From Naegleria gruberi (taxonomy: Eukaryota), in the NCBI GenBank assembly GCA_000004985.1, contig GG738895.1: a stretch of 64,000 bases of DNA; one strand, 5' to 3'. The notes beneath the pieces were generated by a model. It did no database searches. It was not told where the DNA came from and was given only the letters and a program-made list of their open reading frames with translations. Below are positions 11,303 through 64,000 of the stretch, one piece after another. Both the position numbers and the translations under genes were made by a program. The first letter of the stretch is position 1. Each line of letters begins with the position of its first letter.

Positions 11303-11338
11303 TGGAGTCATAGGGAATCGAACCCTAGACCTTCTGCA

Positions 11339-11369
<31 letters not shown>

Positions 11370-11375
11370 AACCCC
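11303..11375 (-). tRNA. tRNA-Ala (anticodon UGC)
   Basis: Cloverleaf hand-folded. Acceptor GGGGTTA/TGACTCC includes the G3:U70 Ala identity pair. D arm GCTC/GAGC, anticodon loop TTTGCAT, T arm TAGGG-TTCGATT-CCCTA. No encoded CCA. A TTTTTT terminator lies downstream on the minus strand. Confidence 0.9.
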
Positions 11376-16570: not shown

Positions 16571-17789
16571 AATGAGCGAAGATACAACATTTAATCCAAT
16601 TAGTGTTACTGCTTATGCAGTTGGTGAGAAGAAGGACTCTCAAAAATTGGTTTCCTTTGATAAGGTTGAAAAGCAAGTTAAGAGCATTGGTCCAAATCAT
16701 GTATTTGTTGAATTGATTTGTAGTAGTATTTGTCATACGGACTGGTTTACTTTTGGATCGAAAGGTGCTGTTCCTGGACACGAAATGGTATGTAACTTTT
16801 TAATCAATTGGTTGAAATTAACATGGTAAATTGTGTGAATGAAACAACATTTACTTAATTCAGGTTGGTATTGTTAAGCATATTGGAGAAAATGTCGCCC
16901 ATGAAGGTAAAATCAAAGTTGGCATGCGTGTTGGTATGGGATATCAATTTACTTCATGTCGTCATTGTGAAACTTGCACTAATAATTTGGAAAATTTGTG
17001 TGATAGCTCCAAACCATTTTACACAGCTCCAATTGGTGGAGGATACCAAACAGGAGTTGTTTGGGATGCTCACTTTGTCTTCCCAATTCCAGATAACTTG
17101 AAATCCATCCATGCTGCTCCATTGCTCTGTGCTGGTGCCACTGTCTTTACTGCATTGCACAGATATACAAAGAATCCTCAATATAAGGTTCCAGGTAAAC
17201 CACTCAGTTGTGCAGTGTTGGGATTGGGAGGTCTTGGACATTTGGCCATTCAATACGCTAAAAAGATGGGTTTGCATGTTACTGCATTGAGTACTACTGC
17301 TAGTAAGGAGGAAGAATGCAGATCGTTTGGAGCTGATGAATTTTATGTTCACACCACTGAAGAAGCAAAGACAACTTTAGCATCAAAGTTTGATATTATT
17401 TTGAATACTGTTAGTGGAGATATTGAACTTGATAAGTTTATTGTCATGTTGAGACCTTATGGTCAATTGTGCATGTTGGGTCTTCGTAAGTATTTAACAA
17501 GATTATCAAATTGTGAAATTAACGTAATTTAGCATCAAATCCAAGATATGACTTGTCAGCATTTTCTCTCATTCTGAAGGCTCGTTCCTTGGTCTCTTCT
17601 GTCATTGGTTCTCCAGAAGAATTGAATTTAATGTTGAAGTTCAGTGCTGATCACGATATTAAACCACAAGTTGAGTTGACCACTTTGGATAAAGTTGGTG
17701 AAGCAATTGAAAAGGTTAATTCCAATAAGGTTAGATATAGAATGGTTATGATTGTCAATCAAGAACAAGTTGATAAGGAAAATCAATAA
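16571..17789 (+). CDS. Zinc-dependent alcohol dehydrogenase (MDR family, cinnamyl/mannitol-DH-like); 3 exons (16571..16787, 16864..17485, 17533..17789)
   Basis: Exon 1 ends ..CHTDWFTFGSKGAVPGHEM|GTATGT, and exon 2 starts VGIVKHIG.., reconstituting the classic GHE-VG-V motif. Also present are the structural-Zn cysteines CRHCETCTNNLENLC, a Rossmann GLGGLGHLA, and a C-terminal exon after a 47-nt GTAAGT..TTTAG intron. Introns are 76 and 47 nt. Confidence 0.8.
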
Positions 17790-19656: not shown

Positions 19657-21903
19657 ATGTCTTCTGATCATCAACAGACTCGTCATCGGGTGGGTCAACA
19701 CGTAGACGATGGTGATGATGATGAATTAATGAGTACAGATAATGGGCTATCCAATAATCATCAGCATCATCATCATCTTCAGGAAGGAGATCATCATAAT
19801 ATAATTATTAAACATAATCATCACGAACATGGCTCTGATGATGATTTGGAGTTGAAAAATCAACAGAGAAATCGCTCCGAAGAGGATTTGGGTTTGAATT
19901 ACTCGCAATCAATGAATACCTTTGATGAAAATTCGAATATGATCAATGATGAAGAAGAATCAAACGAACAAGATTCGAGTGAAAAAAGGAAGGAATCATC
20001 AACGATACCAACCACACCAGCACCTACCAATAATCATCAAAGGCAACAGTGGGGATCTCGTCTTTCCTTCATCTTGGCTACAATTGGAGCTGCTATTGGC
20101 TTTGGAAGTTTTGTTAGATTTCCATATCTTGCTTACAAGCAAGGAGGAGGTGCTTTCCTAATTCCATATACTGTTTGTTTAATTGTTTTGGGTATTCCAC
20201 TGTTAATTCTCGAGTTGAGTATGGGACAATTATTGAGGAAGAGTAGTATCAAAGCTCTCGGATTGTTGAACAATCGTATGAGAGGTTTGGGAGTTGCTGC
20301 TGTTCTATTTGGAGGATTTGGAATTTGTACTTATTATAGTGTTTTGATTTCTTGGATTTTTGTCTATTTCTATCACATGTTTGCATGGGAACTTCCTTGG
20401 AAAGGAAAAACTGAAGAATATTTCTATGATGTGATTTTGAGACGTAGTTCTGGTGATACAGTTGTGAGTGAATTGAATATTGCCATTACTGTTTCATTGT
20501 TTTTAGTGTGGGTTTCAGTTTACTGTGGTGTTTGGAAGGGAACTAGCTCAACAGGAATAATCACGTATATTACTGTTCCACTCCCAATATTATTGCTATT
20601 AATCTTGTTGATTACTAGTTTCTTTTTGGAGGGAAGTTGGACAGGAATGTACTATTTCATCAAGCCAGATTTTACAAAGATTTTGAATGTGGAAATTTGG
20701 TTAACTGCAGCTGGTCAGGTATTCTTTTCATTGAGTTTGGCCAGTGGTACCATGATTGCTCTGTCATCCTACAATGATCCAAAGCAAAATATTGTCAAAG
20801 ATGCTTGGATTATTGGTTTGTCCACTTACATTTTCAGTATTTTTGCTGGATTTTGCATGTTTGCTATTTTGGGATATATGGCCCATTCTAAGGGTGTTGA
20901 AATTGATCATATTGTTCAAGGAGGTTTGGCATTGGCCTTTGTTGTCATTCCTGAAGCTATTACCTTAATGCCAGCTTCACATGTTTTTTGCATCTTGTTC
21001 CTTGTTGCCATGTATACTCTTGCTATTGACAGCTGTTTTGGTATGATTGAAGGTGTTAATGCAGTAATTCATGATGCTTTTCCAAATCTCAAATTGCATT
21101 GGATTTCTTTAGTGACTTGTTTTTTGGGATTCATTTTTGGTATTCCATATTGTTTAGACAAGTAAGTATATTGATTTTTTTAGTTGGGTTTACTGAACTA
21201 CTTCAGTGGATACTATTTGATGGATATTGTGGACCATTACTTGAGTGATTTCTGTTTGGTATTGTCAGCTATTGGACAATGTATTGTTGTAGGATATTTG
21301 ATTTCAGACGAATCAGTAATTGCCAGAGTTAGGAAACAATGGAGAGAATACTCTTCTTCATCTTATGCCAATGTTGAAGAAGGTAATGCTACACCAATTG
21401 ATTCATCAGAGCAGCCAGCCACCAGACCTACTCCTCAATGGAAACTCAGAGTGAAAAAGTATCTTTCTCTCACTGATACCATTCTTTTCCATAGTATTGA
21501 TGAATTCAGACTTCGTATCAAGAAGGTCTGTAATTTTGGACCTCACAAAGAGTGGAGCATTTTCATCAAGTATATTGGACCAATTATTTTATTAATCTTG
21601 TTGATTATTCAGTTGGTTAAGGAAATCACCTCACCTTACTCTACAAAAGGTTCAGATTCAAAGGAATTCGACTGGCTCTCTCTCACAATTGGATTATGTA
21701 TCATATTTGGATATTTGGGTACTTTTACTATCTTTGCCATCTTCCCTCGATTGGCCACTCAAAAATCTGAAGATCCTGGAAATTCGTGGAGAGCTGTTTT
21801 GGACAAATATGAAAAGGAAGATTCTGAAAAAGAAGAAGAATCCAAAACTAATAATCTGGAGGAAGAATTACAAAATGTCGTTCCATCCACTCCTCAAGAA
21901 TAA
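19657..21903 (+). CDS. Sodium:neurotransmitter symporter family (SLC6) transporter; 2 exons (19657..21161, 21207..21903)
   Basis: WGSRLSFILATIGAAIGFGSFVRFPYLAYKQGGGAFLIPY is the hallmark SLC6 TM1 motif, and the protein is multi-TM. The first ATG is 19657 (track start 19630 is TTG). The two track ORFs are in the same frame and are joined by a 45-nt GTAAGT..CTTCAG intron with a TACTGAAC branch-like element. Confidence 0.8.
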
Positions 21904-22077: not shown

Positions 22078-23048
22078 ATGCTCAAAACCTCCAATCGTCT
22101 CTCCTCTCTTGTTTCTTGTCAAGCTTTAAAGGAAGCCATCAACAAGACAAGCAATATTAAAATTATTGACGGATCATGGCATATGCCAGCCATGAAACGT
22201 AATGGCTATGAAGAATATTTAAAAGAACACATTCCGAATGCTAGATTTTTTGATATTGATGGATTGAGTGATCAAAACACTGATTTGCCACACATGTTCC
22301 CTTCTGTTGAATTGTTTGAGAAGAGCATTACAGAAATGGGTATTGAAAATACTGATCAAATTGTTGTATATGATACTGCCTTTACTTCAGCATTCAGAGT
22401 TTGGTATACGTTTAAAGTTTTTGGACATGAAGGGAAGGTTAGCTTGTTGGATGGTGGATTAACCAAGTGGAAGCTATTGGGCTATCCTATCGAAAGTGGA
22501 AAACCAAATATTACTCCATCATCTCATCCGTACAAGGCCAAATATCAATCGGATTTTGTTGCAAGAATGGACGAAATTTTGGATAATTTGAATAATCAAA
22601 AATCATACATTGTTGGTATGTAATATTATTAGTGGAATATTAGTGAGATATGATACTATTTATTATACACTGAATAGATGCTAGATCAGCTGAAAGATTT
22701 AATGGAACTCAACCAGAACCTCGTCCAAATTTAAAGAGTGGACACATTCCAAATTCTTTCAATATTCCATTCCCAACTCTTGTCAATCCAGAAGATAAAA
22801 CTTTCAAGACAGATGAAGAGATTTTGAAATTATTCCAAAACTCTGGTTTGAACATTCAATACATTAATGATAAGATTGTAATTGACAAGCCAATTATTGG
22901 AAGTTGTGGAAGTGGTGTAACTGCTTGTGCCTTGCTCTATTCCCTTAATCTTCTTGGTGTTTCTCTTGATAAACTTCGTATTTATGATGGCTCCTTCTCG
23001 GAGTACGGAAAGGAATCATTCACCAATCCAGTTTCCCAAAGAAAATAA
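22078..23048 (+). CDS. Rhodanese/3-mercaptopyruvate sulfurtransferase (two rhodanese domains); 2 exons (22078..22615, 22678..23048)
   Basis: Domain 1 is inactive. Domain 2 carries the active-site CGSGVTA (MST-type CG[ST]GVTA). Exons are joined over a 62-nt GTATGT..AATAG intron, giving ..SYIVG|DARSAERFNG.. in frame. Confidence 0.8.
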
Positions 23049-23094
23049 GTTTCAACAAGTTCCACACATCATTCACATTTCACTCAAAAAAAAA

Positions 23095-25389
23095 ATGTCA
23101 TCATATACAGAGATTATTAGTGGGTTAAGTGTTAGAGCCTCCGGTGTGCATACAAACTTGGATGAAAATGGAATGGTGACTAATAAAGATCCAAAAGAAA
23201 GACTTTTAGAAGTGTGTAAGGATATTATTTCCTACTACAATTCCTACCAAGACAAGACACAAGATTTCTGCCAGAAAATTACAGCCATATTCGAATCGTT
23301 TGTTGCAGACAAGAGGTTTAATTCAATCTTCCTTGAAAAGGATGTTGCAGCTGTTTATTCCGATTGTCTGATCAATCCGAAATATGGTATCAAATTAACA
23401 GGACACGGAGGTATTTGGAAGTTGGTCAATTTTCAACATATTGTTACGAAGGAGACGACAAAACAGTTTGTGGATATTGGTCTATTGGACATGTTCAATC
23501 AACTGAATGCCACAACTGTTGATTGTACCAATACTTCCTACACTACTTCTATCATGAATATTTATCATGTTATCGGAACTCAGAAGGAATATGCTCGATT
23601 GGTTGTTAGACCAGTGATTGCCCTGATACTCAAGCTTGAAAATAGTAGTTATGAAGCTAGAAATTATATGAATTACTTGTTTAATATTGTTGGATGTGAT
23701 AGGGAAAGAATTTTTGAAGAATATGGAAAAGATCTTGAAGAGGTCAATAAGAAATTTGAAAAGAACAAGAATCAAACAATCAAGCAACTTCTCTTTGATT
23801 TATTTGGCACAAAGAATGCAGAATTTGTTTCCCTATTGATTGACTATGCAGGAACTAAGAAGAAATACTCCTTCCCTATTGATAATGAGATTGAAACTAC
23901 TGTTGAAGATGTGACACAATTCATTTTGGAGAAGTGTGTTATGGAGGATGTAGATGTGATTGAGAGTCATGAATTACAAATTTACGATATGGATATTGAG
24001 GACTATGTGGATTTTGATTTTATTGATTCGGATATTTTTGGAAAGGATGGTAATGCTGCCAAGTTCAAGTTGAACGTTACAATTGATTATGATAAAAAGA
24101 GAAAAAAGGAAGAAAAAAGAGAATCCGAGTTGAGAGAATTATCCGAGAAGAGTATATCTAGTATCAACCTTTCAGAAAAGTCGCTGGCAGACTCTGTACC
24201 ATCTTCTCACAAATTCGATAGCAGTATTGCTAGCTCAGGAATTGAAATGTCTAGTATGGAAATGTCCGCTATGAAAGATTCAGGAAATGAAATTTCTGGT
24301 ATTCCAATGTCAGGAATCCAAATGTCTGGTATTGAAATGTCTGGAATTCAAATGTCAGGCGTTGAAATGTCAGGTATTGAAATGTCTGGATTTTCGTCAT
24401 CTCACTCAATCTCAGGTCATAATGGTCCTCTTGAAATGCCATCATTTATTTCTGCTGCTGAAAATGCTCCAAAGGTAGAGCTAACCGAGAATAGTTTATT
24501 AGGTGGCAGCTTTGAGATTCCAGATTCATTCAAAGAACCAGTTGTCACATCTCAAAAGGACAAAAAGACCAAAAAGATTGTTAATGAAACATATCAAATA
24601 TTGGATAAGATTGAATCTAATGAATCAATGATTGATAGAAAGGTTTATATTGCAAAGGATTTGGCCAACAAATCTGGTCCAAATATTGTAATCAAATATT
24701 TACCAATCAAATCAACCACCGAATTCAACAGATGTATGAAGGAAGGAGTAAATATGATTCGTATGGGAAGAACTATTCAACAAAAGAAGATTCCACTCGC
24801 AAACATATTCGATGTCTTTGAAGAAGAAGACAAGGAGAAGAATAAGGCATCCATCAGATTCCTTTGTTTTGCCATGCCTTACTATGGATCTGGAAATTTG
24901 CAAACCTATTTGGAATCAAAGAATCAACCATCCTTGGATTGGAATTTCATCTACTCTCTATTCAAGCAAATTGTTAATGGTTTGGTGTATTTGCATGAAC
25001 AAAATATTGCTCACAAGAATCTCAAACTCTCCAATGTTTTCTTTGTGGATGAGGATAAAATCGTACTGACAGATTATGGACTAAATAGTGACATTTCATC
25101 ACAAGTACCAGAACACAATTCTCTGAGCAATGTGGAAAATATTCCAATTGAGAAATTCCAAAAGGCAGATATCTATCAAGCCGGGTTAATATTTGCCTCC
25201 CTGTGTTTGCTCCTGAATGGTAACACGGTGAGTAATTTGACTACGATTTTGAAGGAAGGAGAAAGCTCATTAAGAAATTCTCTTGGTAAAATCCCAGAAA
25301 AAGCAAAGGACATGGCTGTCAAATTATTGACTCAAGATCCAAATGAAAGACCATCCATTCAGCAAGTTGTCAATTTGTTGGATATCTAG
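23095..25389 (+). CDS. Predicted pseudokinase with N-terminal unknown domain and internal MSGIE pentapeptide repeats
   Basis: The C-terminal kinase-like fold has VIKY (retains the VAIK lysine), HKNLKLSN in place of HRDLKPxN (catalytic Asp lost), DYG in place of DFG, subdomain XI DPNERPS, and no Gly-rich loop. About 8 tandem 15-nt repeats encode M-S-G-I-E/Q (about 24237-24400). The first ATG is 23095 (track start 22927 overlaps the upstream gene). Confidence 0.6.
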   Translation: MSSYTEIISGLSVRASGVHTNLDENGMVTNKDPKERLLEVCKDIISYYNSYQDKTQDFCQKITAIFESFVADKRFNSIFLEKDVAAVYSDCLINPKYGIKLTGHGGIWKLVNFQHIVTKETTKQFVDIGLLDMFNQLNATTVDCTNTSYTTSIMNIYHVIGTQKEYARLVVRPVIALILKLENSSYEARNYMNYLFNIVGCDRERIFEEYGKDLEEVNKKFEKNKNQTIKQLLFDLFGTKNAEFVSLLIDYAGTKKKYSFPIDNEIETTVEDVTQFILEKCVMEDVDVIESHELQIYDMDIEDYVDFDFIDSDIFGKDGNAAKFKLNVTIDYDKKRKKEEKRESELRELSEKSISSINLSEKSLADSVPSSHKFDSSIASSGIEMSSMEMSAMKDSGNEISGIPMSGIQMSGIEMSGIQMSGVEMSGIEMSGFSSSHSISGHNGPLEMPSFISAAENAPKVELTENSLLGGSFEIPDSFKEPVVTSQKDKKTKKIVNETYQILDKIESNESMIDRKVYIAKDLANKSGPNIVIKYLPIKSTTEFNRCMKEGVNMIRMGRTIQQKKIPLANIFDVFEEEDKEKNKASIRFLCFAMPYYGSGNLQTYLESKNQPSLDWNFIYSLFKQIVNGLVYLHEQNIAHKNLKLSNVFFVDEDKIVLTDYGLNSDISSQVPEHNSLSNVENIPIEKFQKADIYQAGLIFASLCLLLNGNTVSNLTTILKEGESSLRNSLGKIPEKAKDMAVKLLTQDPNERPSIQQVVNLLDI

Positions 25390-25445
25390 TCAAATCTCTT
25401 TCTTAAATCCATTATAAACATTGGTCAAATTTATTGAGGCAAATT

Positions 25446-26779
25446 CTAATTGTTTTTTATAGAAGAGTAACACTCGGTCGTGTAATATAGTTGATCTATA
25501 GCCTCACTAAATCCTCTTTCTTCAAAGCCTTCCCCTACAATCCAGTGAACATAAGCTCTCTTGCTATACATCTTATCAAATTGTAGAGCAAGGTTATTAA
25601 GATAACTTGTTATTGAACTGGTATTGTTGGCAATGTGCATTACATTTTTAAAATGGAAAGAGGTTGGATGAATATTTACAGGTGCCTTTCTTGATATTTG
25701 ATATTGAGCTTGTTCATTGTTGTAAGTTTTGAGTACTTTCGAAAGAGAATCAGTATGATGATGTGAAAAATCTCCTCTCATTGATGTGTTCATTGCTATG
25801 GAAACTCCATCAGCCTTATTAACACTATTCAAAGAGGATTTTTTTGAAAAGAGATCCTTAATATTGAATTCAGTACTGGATGTATCTTGCAAGTTTACAA
25901 AACTATTAGATATTATATTAGTTTCGGCTGTTACACCCAAATAATCAATGACATTATTTAAACTTCCTTCATTTGAGAATCTAATCTGAGATGTTAATGT
26001 TGAAATACTTTGTGAAATTAAATGATTCATGTCCTTGAAATTAGGATTCTCAATTCCACACTCCACACAAGCATCCAATAGTGAACAATTATCAAATGCA
26101 AATATACATTTCATTCTATCATAAATATAATTCAAGCCAATAACTGAATTGTAAGTATCCAACATTGAAGTAGAATAAGTTGCACCTGGAAAAACAGTAA
26201 AGGTTGACTCGAAACATTATCTCAATATTCAACATGAAACTCTCACAAACCTACCATTGGTAATTTAAATTCATTTGCCAAACCCCAGACAATACGAGAG
26301 GTTGATCCAGATCCAGTTCCTCCACCAAGTGCTTGAGTAATCAATATACTCTCCACTGAATCACATCGTTCCAGCATTTTCCTAACTCTCTCCTCAATAT
26401 AATTAATTTCACAAGATGACATTGAAAAATAGCCTTTACCAAAGTTTGAGGCAGCATCTTCATTACCACATATTATATTTTCCTCCTTAAATTGAACATG
26501 CAATTGATGATCATTATGCAATGAACTTTGTAGTTGTTGGGGATCGGAATCAAAGAATAAACATCGAGGATGATAGACATTCTCCACTCTAATGGATTCA
26601 TCATATAAACATGATAGATTATTAATTTGTGGATCATTGTGGATATTGCTATTTTCTAAAAGTGAATTAGTGTTGTTGTTGTTGGATTGTAATCCGTGTT
26701 CATCGGCAAATAATTGCCAGAGATCAGTGCCGATCTGAGTTCCGCAATTACCAATATGCAAAAATATCAATTCTTTCAT
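25446..26779 (-). CDS. Divergent tubulin-family protein; 2 exons (about 26252..26779, 25446..26186)
   Basis: The N-terminus MKELIFLHIGNCGTQIGTDLWQLFADEHGL parallels the tubulin MREIVHIQAGQCGNQIG..FWEVISDEHG. It has the GGGTGSG nucleotide-binding signature and the C-terminal KRAYVHWIVGEGFEERGFSEA (compare KAFVHWYVGEGMEE.EFSEA). The two ORFs are joined by a 65-nt GTTTGT..TTCCAG intron. Coordinates here are ±1; the displayed sequence and the ORF track disagree by 1 nt locally. Confidence 0.75.
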
Positions 26780-26920
26780 TTTTTTTTTAAATATTAAATA
26801 TTTTAAATACAATAATTGTAATGTCCTTAATATTTAAAGATGTATTTTGTCAAGTGTTGAAGTTCTCTTGAACTTTGATCTTTAAATAGATTTTGAAAAA
26901 AACAATTTTCAAAAAAAAAA

Positions 26921-27832
26921 ATGATTCAATTCTTGGATCCAAATGTTGTGCAATTTGAAATTTTACCTCATCTCGATGATCGATCCGTTATTTCACTCCT
27001 ATCGACATGTAAAATTGTCAATCAGGTAATTTCTATTCCGGACTATATCGAAACAAAATTGAAAATAATGGATGAAGAAATTTTGAGTCAGAAATTCAAT
27101 GAGTTGGAACAAAGTCCAATCCAAGTGAATAGAATTAATGAAATATTTAGATTAGCATATTTGAATTTTAGAGAAGGAATGTTTCAAACTGAAAAGCAAT
27201 TGTTAGGAACAGTTAAAGTGGATGAGGCACAATGTTATGGAAAATTGAAATCTCAATATACTCTTTTGCAGAGATATGTTTTCAAGAATTCCGACAAATT
27301 ATCACCACACTGTAATAGGAGTGTTTTTTCAGGTTCAACAGGATTTTGGAATTCTCATAGTGTTGATTTTAAAATCTCAAAAGAGAATACTGTATATTAT
27401 TGGTCCATTGTCCTTACAGCATTTGATCGTAAGATATCAAATAGCTGGGCAATACTTGTAGGTTTTGCTGAAGAGGATGCTGCCTCATCATTATCTAAAA
27501 GCTGGATTCCATCTGGATATTGTGTCAAATCAAATGCAATACTTGAAAATAGTTATACATCATACACAGAGAGCCTTGTGAATACGGAAGGAGATGTCAT
27601 TGGAATTGAGTGCTATGTCCAAAACAAAACAGTCTATTTCAATGTTTACTCTCCTTCGAGGAACCATCAGACCTTTCAATTCAAATCTGTGAATAGTAAT
27701 ATAGTACCAATGGTATCTATGGTACACTCTCAATCACTCCAATTACTTTCATTACTTCCGTGGGATGGGCATGTGGAAAGCTTGAAATCCTTTGGAGAAT
27801 GTGCAACAAGGATTTGTACAGCAGAAGAATGA
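26921..27832 (+). CDS. F-box / SPRY(B30.2)-domain protein (module gene A)
   Basis: The N-terminal F-box-like motif is VVQFEILPHLDDRSVISLLSTCKIVNQVI. The C-terminal SPRY-like pattern is WSIVL...WAILVGFAEED...GYCVKSN...GDVIGIECYVQNKTVYFNV. About 90% identical to the minus-strand copy at 52502..53413. Confidence 0.7.
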   Translation: MIQFLDPNVVQFEILPHLDDRSVISLLSTCKIVNQVISIPDYIETKLKIMDEEILSQKFNELEQSPIQVNRINEIFRLAYLNFREGMFQTEKQLLGTVKVDEAQCYGKLKSQYTLLQRYVFKNSDKLSPHCNRSVFSGSTGFWNSHSVDFKISKENTVYYWSIVLTAFDRKISNSWAILVGFAEEDAASSLSKSWIPSGYCVKSNAILENSYTSYTESLVNTEGDVIGIECYVQNKTVYFNVYSPSRNHQTFQFKSVNSNIVPMVSMVHSQSLQLLSLLPWDGHVESLKSFGECATRICTAEE

Positions 27833-31800: not shown

Positions 31801-31874
31801 TGCCTCCCTTGGGAATCGAACCCAAGACCTCTGTCTTACTAGGACAGCGCTACTGCCAACTGAGCTAGGAAGGC
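31801..31874 (-). tRNA. tRNA-Thr (anticodon AGU)
   Basis: Hand fold: acceptor GCCTTCC/GGGAGGC with one G-U pair, anticodon stem CTGTC/GACAG, loop CTAGTAA, T arm TTGGG-TTCGATT-CCCAA. No CCA. Short T-run downstream. Confidence 0.85.
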
Positions 31875-39818: not shown

Positions 39819-39898
39819 GCAGGGGTTCCCGAGTGGTCAAAGGGGTAGACTCAAGTTCTACTGCGCAAGCTTCGTGGGTTCAAATCCCACCTTCTGCA
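39819..39898 (+). tRNA. tRNA-Leu (anticodon CAA), class II, no intron
   Basis: Hand fold: acceptor GCAGGGG/CTTCTGC (2 G-U pairs), 3-bp D stem CCC/GGG with a GAGTGGTCAAA loop, anticodon stem GTAGA/TCTAC, loop CTCAAGT, long variable arm, T arm GTGGG-TTCAAAT-CCCAC, T-run downstream. Confidence 0.85.
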
Positions 39899-42140: not shown

Positions 42141-42541
42141 TTTTTTTTAATTAAAATTATTTTATTGTTGTGATAAAAATACACCTTGTTAATTAAACTG
42201 TCTTGTGAAAATAGTGAAGTAAAGGTTCAAGTTGTTGTGAAGGTGATGATCTACGAAACACAGAAGGTATTAATCATTCCGCTTGTTTGTTATTGATGGA
42301 GTCATGTTCTTATTGTTATGTGTTTGGTCCAAACATGAGATTCTTTCAGGCTGGCATTTTTTAGCTTGGGATTTGCCTGTAAAATATTCTTATTGTAAAA
42401 GAACCCTAGACTGGGTTGGCCAAAATTTGCGAAAGTTTGTCGAAAAAAAAATACAAAAAGTAAGTTAATGCCACACCTTCGTACTTATCGTTCTCCTTTC
42501 TACTTGTTTTAAAATGATAAAATTTATTGTTACACAACTAG

Positions 42542-45359: not shown

Positions 45360-45430
45360 GCGTCGATGGTTTAGTGGTAGAATACGGCGTTGCCATCGCC
45401 GTGACCCGGGTTCAATTCCCGGTCGACGCA
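45360..45430 (+). tRNA. tRNA-Gly (anticodon GCC)
   Basis: Perfect acceptor GCGTCGA/TCGACGC. Anticodon stem CGGCG/CGCCG with loop TTGCCAT. T arm CCGGG-TTCAATT-CCCGG. 71 nt. Confidence 0.9.
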
Positions 45431-47460: not shown

Positions 47461-49644
47461 ATGAAATCAACATCTCTATTGATATCTTTGGTTCTTTTTA
47501 TTTCCATCTGCATTTCCACACATGTCAATTGTGCATGGAACTTGCCACCACTCGGTTCTCCAAGAATACTCTTTGCAGATTCGTCCTACTTGACGAAACT
47601 AAAGTCTGACATGGCAAAGCCAACCAATTACGCCACTTCTTTCAAAAACTTTGTTAATAGTGGAATTTCTGGTGGCGGATCCGTCTATCTATTCGAAGCA
47701 TGGCACTCAGCTCTATTATTCATGGTCACAGGACAAGTTTCCTATTGTAACTATGCAGTTCAAAATATAGATTCCATTGTAGCTCAAGAAGAATCCATCA
47801 TTGCCAGTGGGAACATTCCATCCATTGCAGGAGATAGTTATCTTGATGTTGGATATGGTTTGCATAATATAATGACTGTCTATGATTGGTGTCGAGCACA
47901 AACAAGTCAATCTCAAAGAAATCGATGGACAAATTATGCCAATCAAGCAGTTTCTAATATTTGGAATTGCTCAACAGCGACATGGGGTGGTAAAGATGCT
48001 GCATGGTCATGTTGGTCGGTGGATAATCCAGGAAACAATTATTATTACTCCTTTTTGAGAGCAACCATGATGGTTGGGTTAGCCACATACGGAGAGAATG
48101 CAAGTGCTGATATGTGGTTGAGACAATTTAGAAATGTCAAGATTGGAAATCAATTAATTCCATATTTTAATGGAGAGCTCAAGACAGGTGGCAGTTTGGA
48201 AGGAACTGGGTATGGTATTTCACATAAGGAATTGTTTAATTTGTATATTTGGTGGCAATTGTCAACTGGTGAAAATATTGCTGACCTGACTTCACACACT
48301 TACAATTCGTTACAATGGATTTTGCATCAAATGGTTCCACAATTGGATGCATTGGCAAATATTGGCGATCAAGCACGTGATTCCTCTGCATCTTTCTATG
48401 ATTATCATCGTCATTACATTATTGCTCTTTGCTATTTATATCCAAAATCCAAATTAGCAAAATCAGCTAAAATTCTATTATCCAAATCGAGTGTTCCTCA
48501 AATGACAAGCGGTTTCAATACTTATATAGATTACATTTATGATATCAGTTCTATTGAAACAGTTCCACTCAATTCAACCTATATTACAACTTCATTCAGG
48601 GGAGATTCAACTGGAACTCTTGCCTTACGTTCAAGTTGGGATTCTGATGCAGTTTATGCTAATTTAGTTTGTGGACCACTTGTAGAATCTCATGCACATC
48701 AAGATCAGGGAAGTTTTATTCTATATCACAAGGGTTGGTTGGCATATGATCAGAATTTCAATAGTCATTCTGGAATTCAACAAATGAATCACTATCATAA
48801 TTTGGTTAGAATTGTTAGTGACAATGAGATTATTCTTCAATCTGGAGGATCTCCTTGTAATATGAGTGCACTTTCTGATAATTCTGTTTATTCCTATGCA
48901 CTTTCACTTGTTACTCCTCTATATGATAGTAATAATTACAATTCGAAAGGTTTAGTTACCAAAGTCGAAAGAGAATTTGTATTTATCAAACCAAGTACAT
49001 TTGTTGTTTTTGATAGAGTGGCAACAAAGACTAATTCCAAAGCTAAAAGAATACTTTCGCTTAATTTTATGGATAAACCAAGCTATTCCAATGGAAATTT
49101 GGTTTTTAATTCAAAGAGTTCCATTACTGTTAAAACTCTTTCTCCAACCTCAAATTTAAACGTTTCCATTATTGATTGGAAAACTGAAGATTCTGATAAC
49201 AATGCTGGATATAGAGTTGACTATTTGGATACTTCATCATTAGATTCCACTAACTTTTTACAAGTAATTTCAATCAACTCTTCTGTTGCCTCATCCATTA
49301 GGGATGATGTTAGTGGAAAAATAGGAGCAACAATTAGTTTGAATGATGGACGAAAGGTAACTGTTCGATTCAATACTGCCAGTACTGGTGGATCAATCGT
49401 GGTTATTTCCAATAAGCAAACAACATTGGTGAATGAGGATCTCACAACCAGTAAGCAAGCTCTTGGTGTGGGAGAGGTAATAGTTCCACTTTCATCACCT
49501 AAACCTGTTCCAATTTCTTCTGTGCAACCAGGTCAAAAATCAAGCAAAGCATTTACATCAACAAGAGTTAATTCTAGTCGGCCATCTCAAATGAGTAGTT
49601 TGTTCTTCATTATTGTAATAATTGGTTTCATTTTAATAAATTAA
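47461..49644 (+). CDS. Secreted heparinase II/III-like / alginate-lyase-like polysaccharide lyase with GPI-anchor-like C-terminus
   Basis: Signal peptide MKSTSLLISLVLFISICISTHVNCA. The N-terminal half is Trp-rich and (alpha/alpha)-toroid-like. The C-terminal beta-domain contains ESHAHQDQGSFILYHKGWLAYDQN, matching the heparinase II/III HxHxDxxSF..G....D.G signature. The Ser-rich stalk ends in a hydrophobic tail (SSLFFIIVIIGFILIN). Confidence 0.65.
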   Translation: MKSTSLLISLVLFISICISTHVNCAWNLPPLGSPRILFADSSYLTKLKSDMAKPTNYATSFKNFVNSGISGGGSVYLFEAWHSALLFMVTGQVSYCNYAVQNIDSIVAQEESIIASGNIPSIAGDSYLDVGYGLHNIMTVYDWCRAQTSQSQRNRWTNYANQAVSNIWNCSTATWGGKDAAWSCWSVDNPGNNYYYSFLRATMMVGLATYGENASADMWLRQFRNVKIGNQLIPYFNGELKTGGSLEGTGYGISHKELFNLYIWWQLSTGENIADLTSHTYNSLQWILHQMVPQLDALANIGDQARDSSASFYDYHRHYIIALCYLYPKSKLAKSAKILLSKSSVPQMTSGFNTYIDYIYDISSIETVPLNSTYITTSFRGDSTGTLALRSSWDSDAVYANLVCGPLVESHAHQDQGSFILYHKGWLAYDQNFNSHSGIQQMNHYHNLVRIVSDNEIILQSGGSPCNMSALSDNSVYSYALSLVTPLYDSNNYNSKGLVTKVEREFVFIKPSTFVVFDRVATKTNSKAKRILSLNFMDKPSYSNGNLVFNSKSSITVKTLSPTSNLNVSIIDWKTEDSDNNAGYRVDYLDTSSLDSTNFLQVISINSSVASSIRDDVSGKIGATISLNDGRKVTVRFNTASTGGSIVVISNKQTTLVNEDLTTSKQALGVGEVIVPLSSPKPVPISSVQPGQKSSKAFTSTRVNSSRPSQMSSLFFIIVIIGFILIN

Positions 49645-49781: not shown

Positions 49782-51883
49782 TTAATAGAGTCTGAGCTTA
49801 ATTTGAACAGATGTGCCTCCACCATTGTAATTCTTGACAACATTATGCTTGATTGAAGCATGTTGGCTCTTTGCTTTTTGACTCTTCTTTGCTTCTTCTT
49901 GTTGAACAAATTGCTTCAAATCTTGTTGAGTGACAGGTTTAACACCTTCAGCAATGTCACGTTCTTCCTCACGAGCCAATCTCTTCTTTTCACGTGCCAA
50001 TCTCAATGCTTCTCTTCTAACTTGCTTTTCAGTTGGAGCTTGAGAAGAATGGCTTTTAACTTCCTTCTGTCTTCTATTCTCTCTATCAATTCTCTTTTGA
50101 ACTCTTACGATTCTTCTTTCCTCTCTCAATAAGCTAATGTTATCTGCAGGTGTATTGTCAAGTACTTTAGCATCATCATCAATCAATGCTCTAGCACGAT
50201 GGATAGCAAGTGTTTTAGTACTGCTACCTCCACTTCCACCACTTGATCCACCACTAGATACAACACTGGATCCACCACCACTTGATCCACCACCGCTTGA
50301 TCCACCACTGGATGATTGAGATTCAGAATTTCTTCTGTTGTGTCTTTGAGCTACAATGTGTTGCTCCAAATCTCTTCTTTGATTTCTTGCAGCTGTCACT
50401 TTTTGTTGTTCACCTTGTGCAGTCATTGGTCCGGCTACTGCATTTCCATCATAAGCAACAAGCATGCCATTAGAAGAACACATCTTGAGGTTATAATCAA
50501 CTGCGTTTGGAGCTTGAGCACGGTTAATGGAACGACCAAGATTAAAGAGTGTTGGGAGAATGGTAGCGAATTGTTTCAATAACTCTGCATCACTAGAATC
50601 ATAATAAAATTGTGCCAAAGTTCTCAATTCAAAGATTACAAGTCTTTGACCACCAACAGTCAATGGGAATCTACCAAATGAATTGTCAAAAGTATCAGCA
50701 TTGACTTCAAATAAATCTCTTGGATTATTGTTGTCAAATAAATTAATCAAATAGTTAGTGGCAGAGAATGGGAATGGAGTTCCATTATCATATGTACGGG
50801 TAAAGTAAACATCTTGATCATTTTGTTTGGTACAAACTGTTGCTTGTGGTCCAATAGTTGCAGCAAGATATCTCTTATATGCGTTAATAACTAAATTGAC
50901 TGGGTTTTCAATTTTACCCAACTCAACTTGAGAAGAACCTTGTCCACCATCCTTTAAGAGTTGAACAATTTGAGTTCTCAAGAGAACTGGTCCAGTAATT
51001 GTCTTGGCAAAAGCACCCATTTCACAATTTTCTCTCTTACCAGAAATGAAATAGTTCAATAGGAAAAACATGACGAATTTGGAACGACCTGAAAGACCAC
51101 GTAATACATTATCCTGTTGATCAATAAATTTAACCAAATTATCCATTGATGCAGCAGAGTCTCTATTACCAAATTTATATCCTTGAGCTGCTTGTGATTT
51201 TGTGTTTAAGAAGGAAACAATTGCCTTAATTGAAGGCCATGCCTTATCAAGTGGGAATGAAAAGGTTGCCTGAAGATTTGGTCCAACACGAGTGAAAGCT
51301 GGTGGTGGTTGATTTGCATTTTGTGCTCCTTGTTTAACCTTTAGTTTAACTCCAAAAGCTTTGTAATATGGATGTACCATCTTATTTGGTTGATTTGTGG
51401 AAATCATATCAAGATATTCCTTGAATTTGCTTTGCATTTTACAAATTTCATTTCCATTATCGGCAAAACGAACTGGATCAGAAACAAATTCAACAATTGG
51501 AAATCTCACAAATTCATAGGTTGGATGGAGTTTTGGATTTTCCATGTCCATGCCTGGATATGGTGGTGGAACATCAAGCATGTTTCCCTATATAAAATAT
51601 ACAAGTTTAGAATAACATTAGTTTAACAATTATTAGAAAAATCATGCATGATCATCAAACATACCTTTGAAAATTCAACTCTTTGACCGTTTGCCTTTGT
51701 GTAACTAGCTTTATAATTGGCAATTGTGGCACCTTCGAATTCACAGGCACCAACTTCACTTTCAAAACCCACAGCTTGGGCGTTTACAATGGAAGTACTG
51801 GATAACATCAAACATGTCAGTGCCAGGATAGTCAATACAAGAGAGATGCTCTTGCATGTTGTAGGGAGAGCAAGTGTTGTCAT
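49782..51883 (-). CDS. Secreted hypothetical protein with PPPY motif, Gly/Ser linker and highly charged C-terminal coil; 2 exons (51665..51883, 49782..51587)
   Basis: The exon 1 start is MTTLALPTTCKSISLVLTILALTCLMLSSTSIVNAQA (signal peptide). The GTATGT donor follows ..VEFSK, and a 77-nt intron ends TTATATAG. Exon 2 is in phase (GNMLDVPPPYPG..). It has a (GGSS)n linker and then an R/K/E-rich predicted coiled coil. Confidence 0.5.
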
Positions 51884-52313: not shown

Positions 52314-52386
52314 TCCCCCTTAGCTCAGTCGGTAGAGCGTCAGACTGTTAATCTGCAGGTCGGTGGTTCGAGCCCACCAGGGGGAG
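52314..52386 (+). tRNA. tRNA-Asn (anticodon GUU)
   Basis: Body TAGCTCAGTCGGTAGAGCGTCAGACTGTTAATCTGCAGGTCGGTGGTTCGAGCCCACC. The acceptor is formed by TCCCCCT/AGGGGGA, i.e. a U1:A72 first pair. TTTTTT terminator follows. Confidence 0.8.
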
Positions 52387-57322: not shown

Positions 57323-57395
57323 GCCCGTCTAGCTCAGTCGGTAGAGCGCAAGGCTCTTAACCTTGTGGTCGTGGGTTCGACCCCCACGGTGGGCG
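57323..57395 (+). tRNA. tRNA-Lys (anticodon CUU)
   Basis: Acceptor GCCCGTC/GGTGGGC. D arm GCTC-AGTCGGTAG-AGCG. Anticodon stem CAAGG/CCTTG, loop CTCTTAA. T arm GTGGG-TTCGACC-CCCAC. T-run follows. Confidence 0.9.
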
Positions 57396-63092: not shown

Positions 63093-64000
63093 ATGGCCCC
63101 TACAAAGGAAAATAATTGGGCAGGCGTTGATCCAAGCCTTCTCAACCAAAAAGATTACTTGTGGACCAAGACTGATGAACCTCATTGGAATAGAAAGAAG
63201 GAATTGTTGAAGAAGTATCCACAAATCAAGGAACTCTACAGTATTGATCCAATGACCAAGTGGAAGATTCTCCTCCTTGTTCTTATCCAATTTGCCACTT
63301 GTTATTATGTAGTAACTGCTAAACCTGCTTGGTACATTGTCCTTGCTTGTATGTGGGTTATTGGTGGTACTTGTAACACTAGTTTGACTGTTGGTATCCA
63401 CGAATTGACTCATGGTATGTTTGATCATTATTCTTTATTGTTAAATTTTAAAAATCATATGCATAATTATTCAATTTAATTATCTAATCTTTCAGGTGTT
63501 GGATTTGAAACTTTGGAATACAATTACATGATGGCAATTTTTGGTAACCTTCCACTTGCTGTTCCTTTTGCCATGTCCTTCAAACGTTACCATCATGAAC
63601 ACCACGTTTATCAAGGAGTTTTGGGTCTTGATACCGACATCGGAACCCCTATAGAAGCAAAATTCTTCAACACTCGTTACACTAAATTCCTCCACGTTCT
63701 CTTCATGGTCTTTTTCTATGCTTTGAGACCATTGTTCCTCCTCCCAAAAATTCCAAACAAGTGGGAATTAATTAACCAAGCTGTTATTTTCTCATTCGTC
63801 GGTGTTGTAACCTATTTCTTCGGTTGGATGTCTATCATCTATTTCTTGGGCTCTGACTTTTTCGGATTGGGTTTGCACCCATTGGCTGGTCACTTTATTT
63901 CTGAAGTAAGTTTTTCATCATGATGATAGTAATATTTACAACAATTATTAGCACTTTGTGACAAGACCAGGACAAGAAACATACAGTTATTATGGTATTG
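63093..64000 (+). CDS. Sphingolipid delta4-desaturase (dihydroceramide desaturase, DEGS1-like), 5' partial within window; exons 63093..63414, 63496..63905, 63952..>64000
   Basis: DYLWTKTDEPHWNRKKELLKKYPQIKELYSIDP.. parallels human DES1 [33 protein letters not shown]. It has His boxes HELTHG and HHEHH, the PLAGHFISE..HFVTRPGQETYSYYG segment (compare HPISGHFIAEHYMF..GHETYSYYG), and introns of 81 and 46 nt (GTATGT..TTTCAG; GTAAGT..TTATTAG). Confidence 0.8.

Follow-up and report, generated by a model that had tools for sequence, protein, structure and literature searches.

A fast-evolving, lineage-specific α-like tubulin gene of Naegleria gruberi and its probably mis-annotated intron

Introduction

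The multi-tubulin hypothesis was built on Naegleria, which harbours roughly a dozen 'bonus' divergent tubulins without an assigned role (Fulton, 2022). One tubulin gene of Naegleria gruberi, on the minus strand of contig GG738895.1 (assembly GCA_000004985.1), raises the question which kind of tubulin it encodes, how its transcript is spliced and whether the product could still work as a tubulin. It occupies positions 25446-26779 of the 64,000 nucleotides (nt) of DNA analysed here (the window), with the start ATG at 26779-26777 and a TAG stop codon at 25448-25446. A first-pass annotation, made from the letters alone, had taken it for a highly divergent member of the tubulin superfamily with a 65-nt intron, either δ-, ε- or ζ-like or a lineage-specific cryptic tubulin, and had linked it to basal-body or flagellar biology in case the host were an amoeboflagellate, which N. 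gruberi indeed is.

Exact-sequence look-up of eight open reading frames (ORFs) of the window and of two spliced versions of the tubulin gene placed the window in N. gruberi NEG-M and showed that the version with the 65-nt intron (422 amino acids, aa) is identical to EFC40066.1 / XP_002672810.1 / UniProt D2VT10, annotated as "alpha-tubulin". An origin of the window in another species, raised by an 'N. gruberi' match of only 58% identity, was rejected, since this match is a paralogue and the proteins of the window equal those of NEG-M exactly. The accessions XP_002672810, EFC40066 and D2VT10 were found in no paper by a text search of the literature. N. gruberi is reported to have 13 α- and 9 β-tubulin genes, 'some highly divergent' (Velle et al., 2022, PMC9036621), and seven α- and five β-tubulins beyond the flagellar and mitotic ones make up its highly divergent 'bonus' set; the genome paper's account of them is summarised in a review which lists their role as an open question (Fulton, 2022, PMC9081340). 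The window gene is one of these 'bonus' α-tubulins and does not differ from them in kind. As it is already annotated, stands in a published tubulin phylogeny and has been discussed as a class, this intact gene counts as known and is not newly discovered. The present analysis contributes an inventory at residue level, a confidently predicted structure, evidence of constraint and a splice model that is probably the more correct one, and as the divergence sits on polymer-contact faces, 'probably does not assemble' can be turned into specific testable predictions.

Results and discussion

Relationship to the known tubulins

The Pfam Tubulin domain (PF00091) was detected in the window protein with E=7.6e-35 (121 bits at a cut-off of 33), and α-tubulins of the PDB matched it at up to E=3e-46, so that the match to tubulin lies far beyond chance; the Pfam Tubulin_C model gave no match to the protein by sequence. 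The motifs quoted in the first-pass annotation are all present on the minus strand, with MKELIFLHIGNCGTQIG in the T1 loop (GNCGTQIG, residues 10-17, G10..G17; 26729-26752, exon 1), GGGTGSG in the T4 loop (residues 152-158; 26306-26326, exon 1) and the α-type motif HWIVGEGFEERGFSEA in H11-H12 (25500-25547, exon 2). For the assignment to a family, five human references confirmed by exact look-up (TBA1A, TBB5, TBG1, TBD and TBE; no ζ reference is in the set) were compared with the window protein. Human α scored highest by phmmer with 166 bits (BLAST identity 27%), followed by β with 148 bits (25%), γ with 87 bits (23%), ε with 74 bits (22%) and δ with 59 bits (23%). With human α and β being 41% identical to each other, the value of 27% bears out the description as highly divergent. 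The best 60 PDB sequence matches of the window protein were α-tubulin without exception (60/60), and 4273 tubulin-like matches were obtained when 1.84 billion representative proteins were searched exhaustively with HMMER. By type, the 154 best matches comprised 112 α- and 42 β-tubulins and no γ-, δ- or ε-tubulin. On profiles built from the best matches the window protein reached 287 bits for α and 267 bits for β, and the extent of its divergence is shown by human γ (381 bits) and ε (346 bits) scoring above it on the α profile. A phylogeny, as proposed in the first-pass annotation, was run as a neighbour-joining (NJ) tree (82 sequences, 423 columns, Kimura distances, 100 bootstraps), in which the protein fell on the α side, together with human α and without human β, γ, δ or ε in 91 of 100 bootstraps, on a branch that is extremely long and not ordinary. 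Its grouping with the N. gruberi proteins D2V7X5 (P0002) and, next, D2VT78 (P0005) had a bootstrap of 100 in each case. The loop between S9 and S10, where an 8-residue insertion is specific to α and absent in β, is of α length with 13 residues (14 in α, 6 in β), and H11-H12 contain the α-type block FDKMYSKRAYVHWIVGEGFEE.GFSEA.

As sequence scores, profile scores, the NJ tree, the fold matches described below and the published maximum likelihood (ML) tree agree on the α side, the view that the gene is a very fast-evolving, lineage-specific tubulin derived from α, on an extremely long branch, is supported by these sequence comparisons. Two points weigh against it, namely the modest preference for α over β (about 18-20 bits) and the proneness of NJ with Kimura distances to long-branch attraction. 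It is extremely improbable that the gene is instead a δ-, ε- or ζ-tubulin, that is a tubulin of basal bodies and centrioles: the strong divergence, the missing acidic tail, which δ and ε likewise lack, and a host that builds basal bodies de novo would agree with such an identity, but human δ and ε gave the lowest scores of all references, none of the 154 best matches is of their type, the NJ tree places the protein inside the α group, and conserved single genes for γ-, δ- and ε-tubulin exist separately in N. gruberi (PMC4819266, PMC9081340). An identity as δ- or ε-tubulin, as suggested in the first pass, was rejected on these four counts, and the evidence for the α placement speaks indirectly against ζ; a solved ε-tubulin as reference was absent from the PDB copy searched.

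The divergent N. gruberi clade

Only two close matches were obtained in the HMMER search, namely the window gene itself from a second strain and its N. gruberi paralogue D2V7X5 (63% identity), all others being at most 37% identical. No orthologue outside N. gruberi was found among the 1.84 billion representatives, and the alternative suggestion of the first pass, a lineage-specific cryptic tubulin, thereby held. A corresponding group is seen in the published ML tubulin tree, where Ngru_72133 clusters with four other N. gruberi sequences (PMC9036621, Data S3/S4). Ngru_72133 is sister to a 1314-nt N. gruberi sequence (support 100/1/100), the pair is joined by XP_002672843.1 and XP_002678438.1 (99.2/1/100) and then by Ngru_71268 (97.9/1/99), and the clade, which has no member from N. 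fowleri or Acrasis, is placed among α-labelled long branches (PMC9036621). We infer that Ngru_72133 (JGI model 72133, scaffold_51 model 68) is the window gene, because the neighbour at 47461-49644 is NAEGRDRAFT_72148, because D2VT78 lies on the same scaffold and because the length of the sister sequence fits D2V7X5 (437 aa x 3 + 3), with which it would accordingly be identical. It counts against this equation that it comes from scaffold and model numbering and the length of the sister, not from a sequence match. The papers listed as containing both 'Naegleria' and '72133' appeared unrelated to this gene.

D2VT78 (XP_002672843.1), the third divergent α-like member of the clade, is encoded on the same 333,733-bp scaffold outside the window, which hints that local duplication had a part in how the clade arose. 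Two further divergent α-like tubulins of 424 and 438 aa, P0041 and P0088 (ENA contigs, 5758 and 4927 bp), come from the same short metagenomic contig and adjoin the divergent N. gruberi group in the NJ tree.

Long-branch tubulins are also known from ciliates, where 'theta', 'iota' and 'kappa' of Paramecium are now classed within α and β and not as new classes (Findeisen et al., 2014, PMC4202323). Like the window gene, the divergent ciliate α/β-like tubulins are restricted to their lineage, and some are without E-hook or polymerisation motifs; they belong to another lineage, however, and the P-loop-like GGGTGSG, kept in the window protein, is lost in some Paramecium members. They share the long-branch region of the published ML tree with the N. 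gruberi clade, which is probably due to long-branch attraction and not to orthology. For the mitotic α-tubulins of Naegleria, a study by Chung (2002) is reportedly to be named alongside that of Velle (2022). These proteins (JGI 58607, 55745) are, as the window gene, divergent Heterolobosea-specific α paralogues of the same genome, but they are 57-58% identical to human α (27% for the window protein), with orthologues known from N. fowleri and Acrasis and expression shown for dividing amoebae (PMC9036621), whereas no orthologue of the window gene was found outside N. gruberi among the proteins searched.

Splicing of the tubulin transcript

The minus strand shows two long ORFs at the locus, 26243-26812 and 25446-26165, and the short stretch between them holds stops in the frame of exon 1. 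As the unspliced frame therefore meets stops, the gene needs an intron, for which two in-frame solutions are available. Exon 2 (25446..26185), common to both, encodes T5 to H12 and the stop codon, without an acidic tail. The annotated intron, which is that of RefSeq and of the first-pass annotation, comprises 65 nt (26186..26250; TAG|GTTTGT...TTTTTCCAG|GT), with exon 1 reaching to 26251, and leads to the 422-aa product. Alternatively, a phase 0 intron of 47 nt (26208..26254; ATG|GTAGGT...TTTCGAG|TCA), which contains stops in the frame of exon 1, would leave exon 1 at 26255..26779 (residues 1-175, S1 to H4) and give a product of 428 aa. The disputed 22 nt (26186..26207) are exonic with the 47-nt intron and intronic with the 65-nt intron. 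An ambiguity of 1 nt and a possible disruption of the gene, noted in the first pass, were not found, the window being free of N (0 ambiguous bases) and the ORF being intact with either in-frame intron.

The disputed 22 nt encode STFTVFP(G) in the frame of exon 2. These residues are strand S5 with its near-invariant Pro (P173 in α), reading SCFSIFP and SSFSVFP in the paralogues and EFSIYP in α, and the Pro, which is conserved in at least 90% of 77 tubulins, is missing from the annotated protein. High-scoring segment pairs of three different tubulins in tblastn extend into the segment, and the predicted local distance difference test (pLDDT) of AlphaFold2 (AF2) for residues 171-180 is 98 for the 428-aa form and 65 for the 422-aa form. 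From sequence conservation and structure prediction, the functional messenger RNA is thus probably one from which 47 nt are removed, with a 428-aa product. For comparison, a strict scan of the window brought out seven probable introns of the spliceosomal type, 45-82 nt in length and all with a GTA[AT]GT donor and a YAG acceptor, located at 16788-16863, 17486-17532, 21162-21206, 22616-22677, 42460-42541 and 63415-63495 on the plus strand and at 51588-51664 on the minus strand, so that a length of 47 nt is normal here. What weighs against the 47-nt intron is its GAG acceptor, as 7/7 of these introns end in YAG, and the textbook pyrimidine tract followed by CAG at the acceptor of the 65-nt intron. 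In several of the probable introns a TTTACT/CTGAA-like motif lies shortly 5' of the acceptor and may be a branch-site consensus.

Should the annotated 422-aa product be the real one, the S5-like codons would be nothing but an intronic remnant. This appears doubtful, if still worth considering: its acceptor agrees with those of the other introns, the two donors each deviate from GTA[AT]GT at one position and are equal in this respect, and the 422-aa form still folds in AF2 with a pLDDT of 89.6, but a conserved strand is removed, seven consecutive in-frame codons fit the S5 motif of the family, three homologues align into the segment, and the local confidence drops. A combination of the GTAGGT donor with the CAG acceptor removes 69 nt and leads to a frameshift with a stop at codon 193; such non-productive splicing of the transcript is improbable. 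Exact look-ups of the products as transcript or contig support for either splice form gave only the genome record. The 65-nt intron of the first pass hence equals the database annotation and leaves an intact ORF of 422 aa, but it is questionable in deleting S5, and with the removal of this conserved core strand in XP_002672810.1 the reference proteome has probably been mis-annotated. The junction peptide LPMSTFTVFPGATYSTSMLDTYNSVIGLNYIYDR, with no K or R before its Arg, would tell the splice forms apart.

The paralogue D2V7X5 (XP_002679827.1), flagged 'LOW QUALITY PROTEIN' in RefSeq, carries 14 extra residues, VSKYGHDIVDTMIK, which lie where the window gene has its intron and occur in no other aligned tubulin. 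Their first residue, Val (GTN), and their last, Lys, fit a 42-nt in-frame intron left unspliced, and such an intron has probably been retained in the database model. Together, a mis-spliced XP_002672810.1 and an unspliced intron in its paralogue would distort alignments, trees and structures built from the database sequences.

Predicted structure and residue inventory

AF2 modelling of the 428-aa form with an alignment of 77 sequences led to a complete three-domain tubulin fold from S1 to H12 (pLDDT 91.3; predicted template modelling score 0.93), with low confidence solely in the N-rich insert between H1 and S2 (residues about 31-50; about 26630-26689, minus strand, exon 1) and in the M-loop (about 281-290). 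The best 50 matches of a Foldseek search against the PDB had TM scores of 0.86-0.90 and appear to be α-tubulin chains, being chain A or C of α-β entries in a table that leaves the subunits unnamed. The 'long Ser/Asn-rich inserts' reported in the first pass come down to the one N-rich insert in H1-S2, by which this loop exceeds that of α by 8 residues; in its other parts the protein is shorter than α. Its Ser plus Asn content is 22%, compared with 8% in human α.

Residues were mapped by MAFFT and by hmmalign to the α profile, with posterior codes of 9 or * at E254/D251. In common with canonical α (human TUBA1A; N. gruberi flagellate α), the window protein has the fold (TM about 0.9), the S9-S10 loop of α length, the H11-H12 sequence FDxMYxKRA(F/Y)VHW.VGEG and much of the nucleotide pocket, in which the G142-G148 block with GGGTGSG, S178, T179, N206 and N228 as well as T1, T4 and T5 are kept; T3 reads DAASNF (exon 1, minus strand). 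The substitutions Q11N, N101S, S140A, E183D and Y224F were found at the N-site, a pattern that would be compatible with nucleotide binding. In α-tubulin, Glu254 (and Asp251) of T7/H8 activates the hydrolysis of guanosine triphosphate (GTP) on the adjoining β subunit. The window protein has N260 (25953-25955, minus strand, exon 2) in place of E254 and S257 in place of D251, and its T7 loop is 2 residues shorter according to hmmalign; at the position of E254 the paralogues carry Asp (D2V7X5) and Gln (D2VT78). Further differences to canonical α are a remodelled M-loop/H10/S9 region in exon 2 on the minus strand, with the M-loop 3 residues shorter and 0% identical to α, and deletions of 4 residues in H9-S8 and 7 in H10-S9. 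Lys40 is missing, with Leu at position 40 within the N-rich insert, and the protein ends with ...ECYSSIKNN directly after H12, without an acidic tail or a terminal Tyr.

The identities to α and to the paralogue D2V7X5 differ by region, with 14-44% to α and 44-78% to the paralogue in the N-terminal domain, 0-19% and 54-73% in S7, M-loop, H9-S8, H10 and S9, 33% and 90% in H7, and 33% and 83% in S10-H11. Together with the deletions, this indicates that the protein has diverged chiefly on the surfaces for lateral contacts and for longitudinal contacts at the minus end, and that its nucleotide face is spared. As the regions unlike α are kept between the paralogues, these contact surfaces are under a constraint of their own in this clade, which makes decay unlikely.

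Selective constraint and possible function

An ENA metagenome contig (L001; ERZ929261, k127_75665, 2143 bp) corresponds to window positions 24542-26684 with 99.2% identity and 18 differences, and a close N. gruberi-like strain is thus present in that environmental sample. The intron region is identical to NEG-M. The tubulin gene differs at 13 sites, 7 of them nonsynonymous and 6 synonymous, resulting in a ratio of nonsynonymous to synonymous rates (dN/dS) of about 0.30 and a binomial p=0.03 against neutrality; 1 nonsynonymous and 4 synonymous differences were counted in the neighbouring kinase gene. Open frame, confident fold, dN/dS and conservation between the paralogues argue against a pseudogene, although the numbers are small. 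The selection test draws on just 13 substitutions, which tells against it, and exon 2 by itself, with 7 nonsynonymous and 4 synonymous differences, would hardly deviate significantly from the neutral expectation at such counts.

We regard it as quite unlikely that the gene is decaying or non-productive, either by plain drift or by splicing from the GTAGGT donor to the CAG acceptor with removal of 69 nt, frameshift and truncation at codon 193. The donor GTAGGT and the acceptor TTTTTCCAG are each good signals that jointly shift the frame, all 7 of the nonsynonymous strain differences fall into exon 2, no orthologue was found beyond N. gruberi, and it has been doubted in a review that such divergent tubulins assemble (PMC9081340). 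An exon 2 of 253 codons is, however, still open in a genome of 33% GC, in-frame splicing is possible in two ways, a confident complete fold is predicted, the regions unlike α are 54-90% identical to the paralogue, pointing to long-term constraint, and 7/7 amino-acid differences between the strains are conservative. The gene would be best explained, with somewhat better than even confidence and judged by sequence and modelling, as a constrained, fast-evolving α-derived paralogue of a clade so far found only in N. gruberi, whose 47-nt intron is removed and whose product would be a folded, GTP-binding, specialised tubulin outside the bulk pool. It would bind GTP through the largely kept pocket and may still pair with a β-like partner via the conserved nucleotide face. 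Because of the exchange of E254 for Asn, the short T7, the short and unrelated M-loop, the deletion in H10-S9 and the absence of K40 and tail, by which features that a canonical lattice α needs on its minus-end and lateral faces and on the outer surface are lost or remodelled, it is probably incapable of acting as a GTPase-activating, laterally bonding lattice subunit. Its most likely role would be that of a minor, specialised tubulin, i.e. a terminal or capping, structural or regulatory subunit, or that of a partner of divergent β-tubulins. It has to be weighed against this proposal that the function is read from residues kept or lost.

A working α isotype that co-polymerises with β in one particular array (basal-body triplets, flagellar apparatus or spindle, for example) would also account for the affinity to α, the predicted complete fold and the largely kept pocket, and different arrays of Naegleria are known to draw on different sets of tubulins (PMC9036621), with roles specific to basal body or axoneme posed as a question by Fulton (PMC9081340). 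Glu254->Asn and Asp251->Ser in a shortened T7, the altered M-loop, the 7 residues deleted in H10-S9 and the lack of an acidic tail for motors, microtubule-associated proteins or modifications make such an isotype unlikely, as does the fact that the documented mitotic and flagellate α genes of Naegleria are others and 57-85% identical to human α (PMC9036621), compared with 27% here. As a more far-reaching and rather tentative form of the specialised non-lattice role, the window gene and its relatives confined to N. gruberi might be a functionally new α-derived class, in which T7/H8, M-loop and H10-S9 would have been exchanged for a surface conserved in the clade, and which might serve as a terminal or capping subunit that does not activate hydrolysis, or as partner of a 'bonus' β-tubulin in a non-microtubule or accessory polymer.

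Neighbouring features of the window

Upstream of the tubulin gene, an A/T-rich intergenic spacer of 141 bp (26780..26920) is common to it and to the F-box gene NAEGRDRAFT_81123 (26921-27832), which is transcribed divergently; the spacer is presumed to be the promoter region. Scans for bacterial-type promoters and terminators and for Rfam families led to nothing relevant to the tubulin gene, the promoter scan being uninformative on the spacer. A second tubulin gene within the window was rejected, as tblastn matches were obtained at this locus only. On the other side, the ORF at 22927-25389 on the plus strand converges on the tubulin gene, with the stop codons 56 bp apart, and encodes a protein of 820 aa whose C-terminus resembles a protein kinase domain. 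In the middle of this ORF, a coding tandem repeat of 15/45 nt with about 10 copies (24235-24390, plus strand) encodes a run of SGI(E/Q)M-type pentapeptides, e.g. MSGIQMSGIEMSGIQMSGVEMSGIEMSG. Six transfer RNA genes are dispersed over the 64 kb, at 11303-11375 and 31801-31874 on the minus strand and at 39819-39898, 45360-45430, 52314-52386 and 57323-57395 on the plus strand, with the identities Ala-TGC, Thr-AGT, Leu-CAA, Gly-GCC, Asn-GTT and Lys-CTT.

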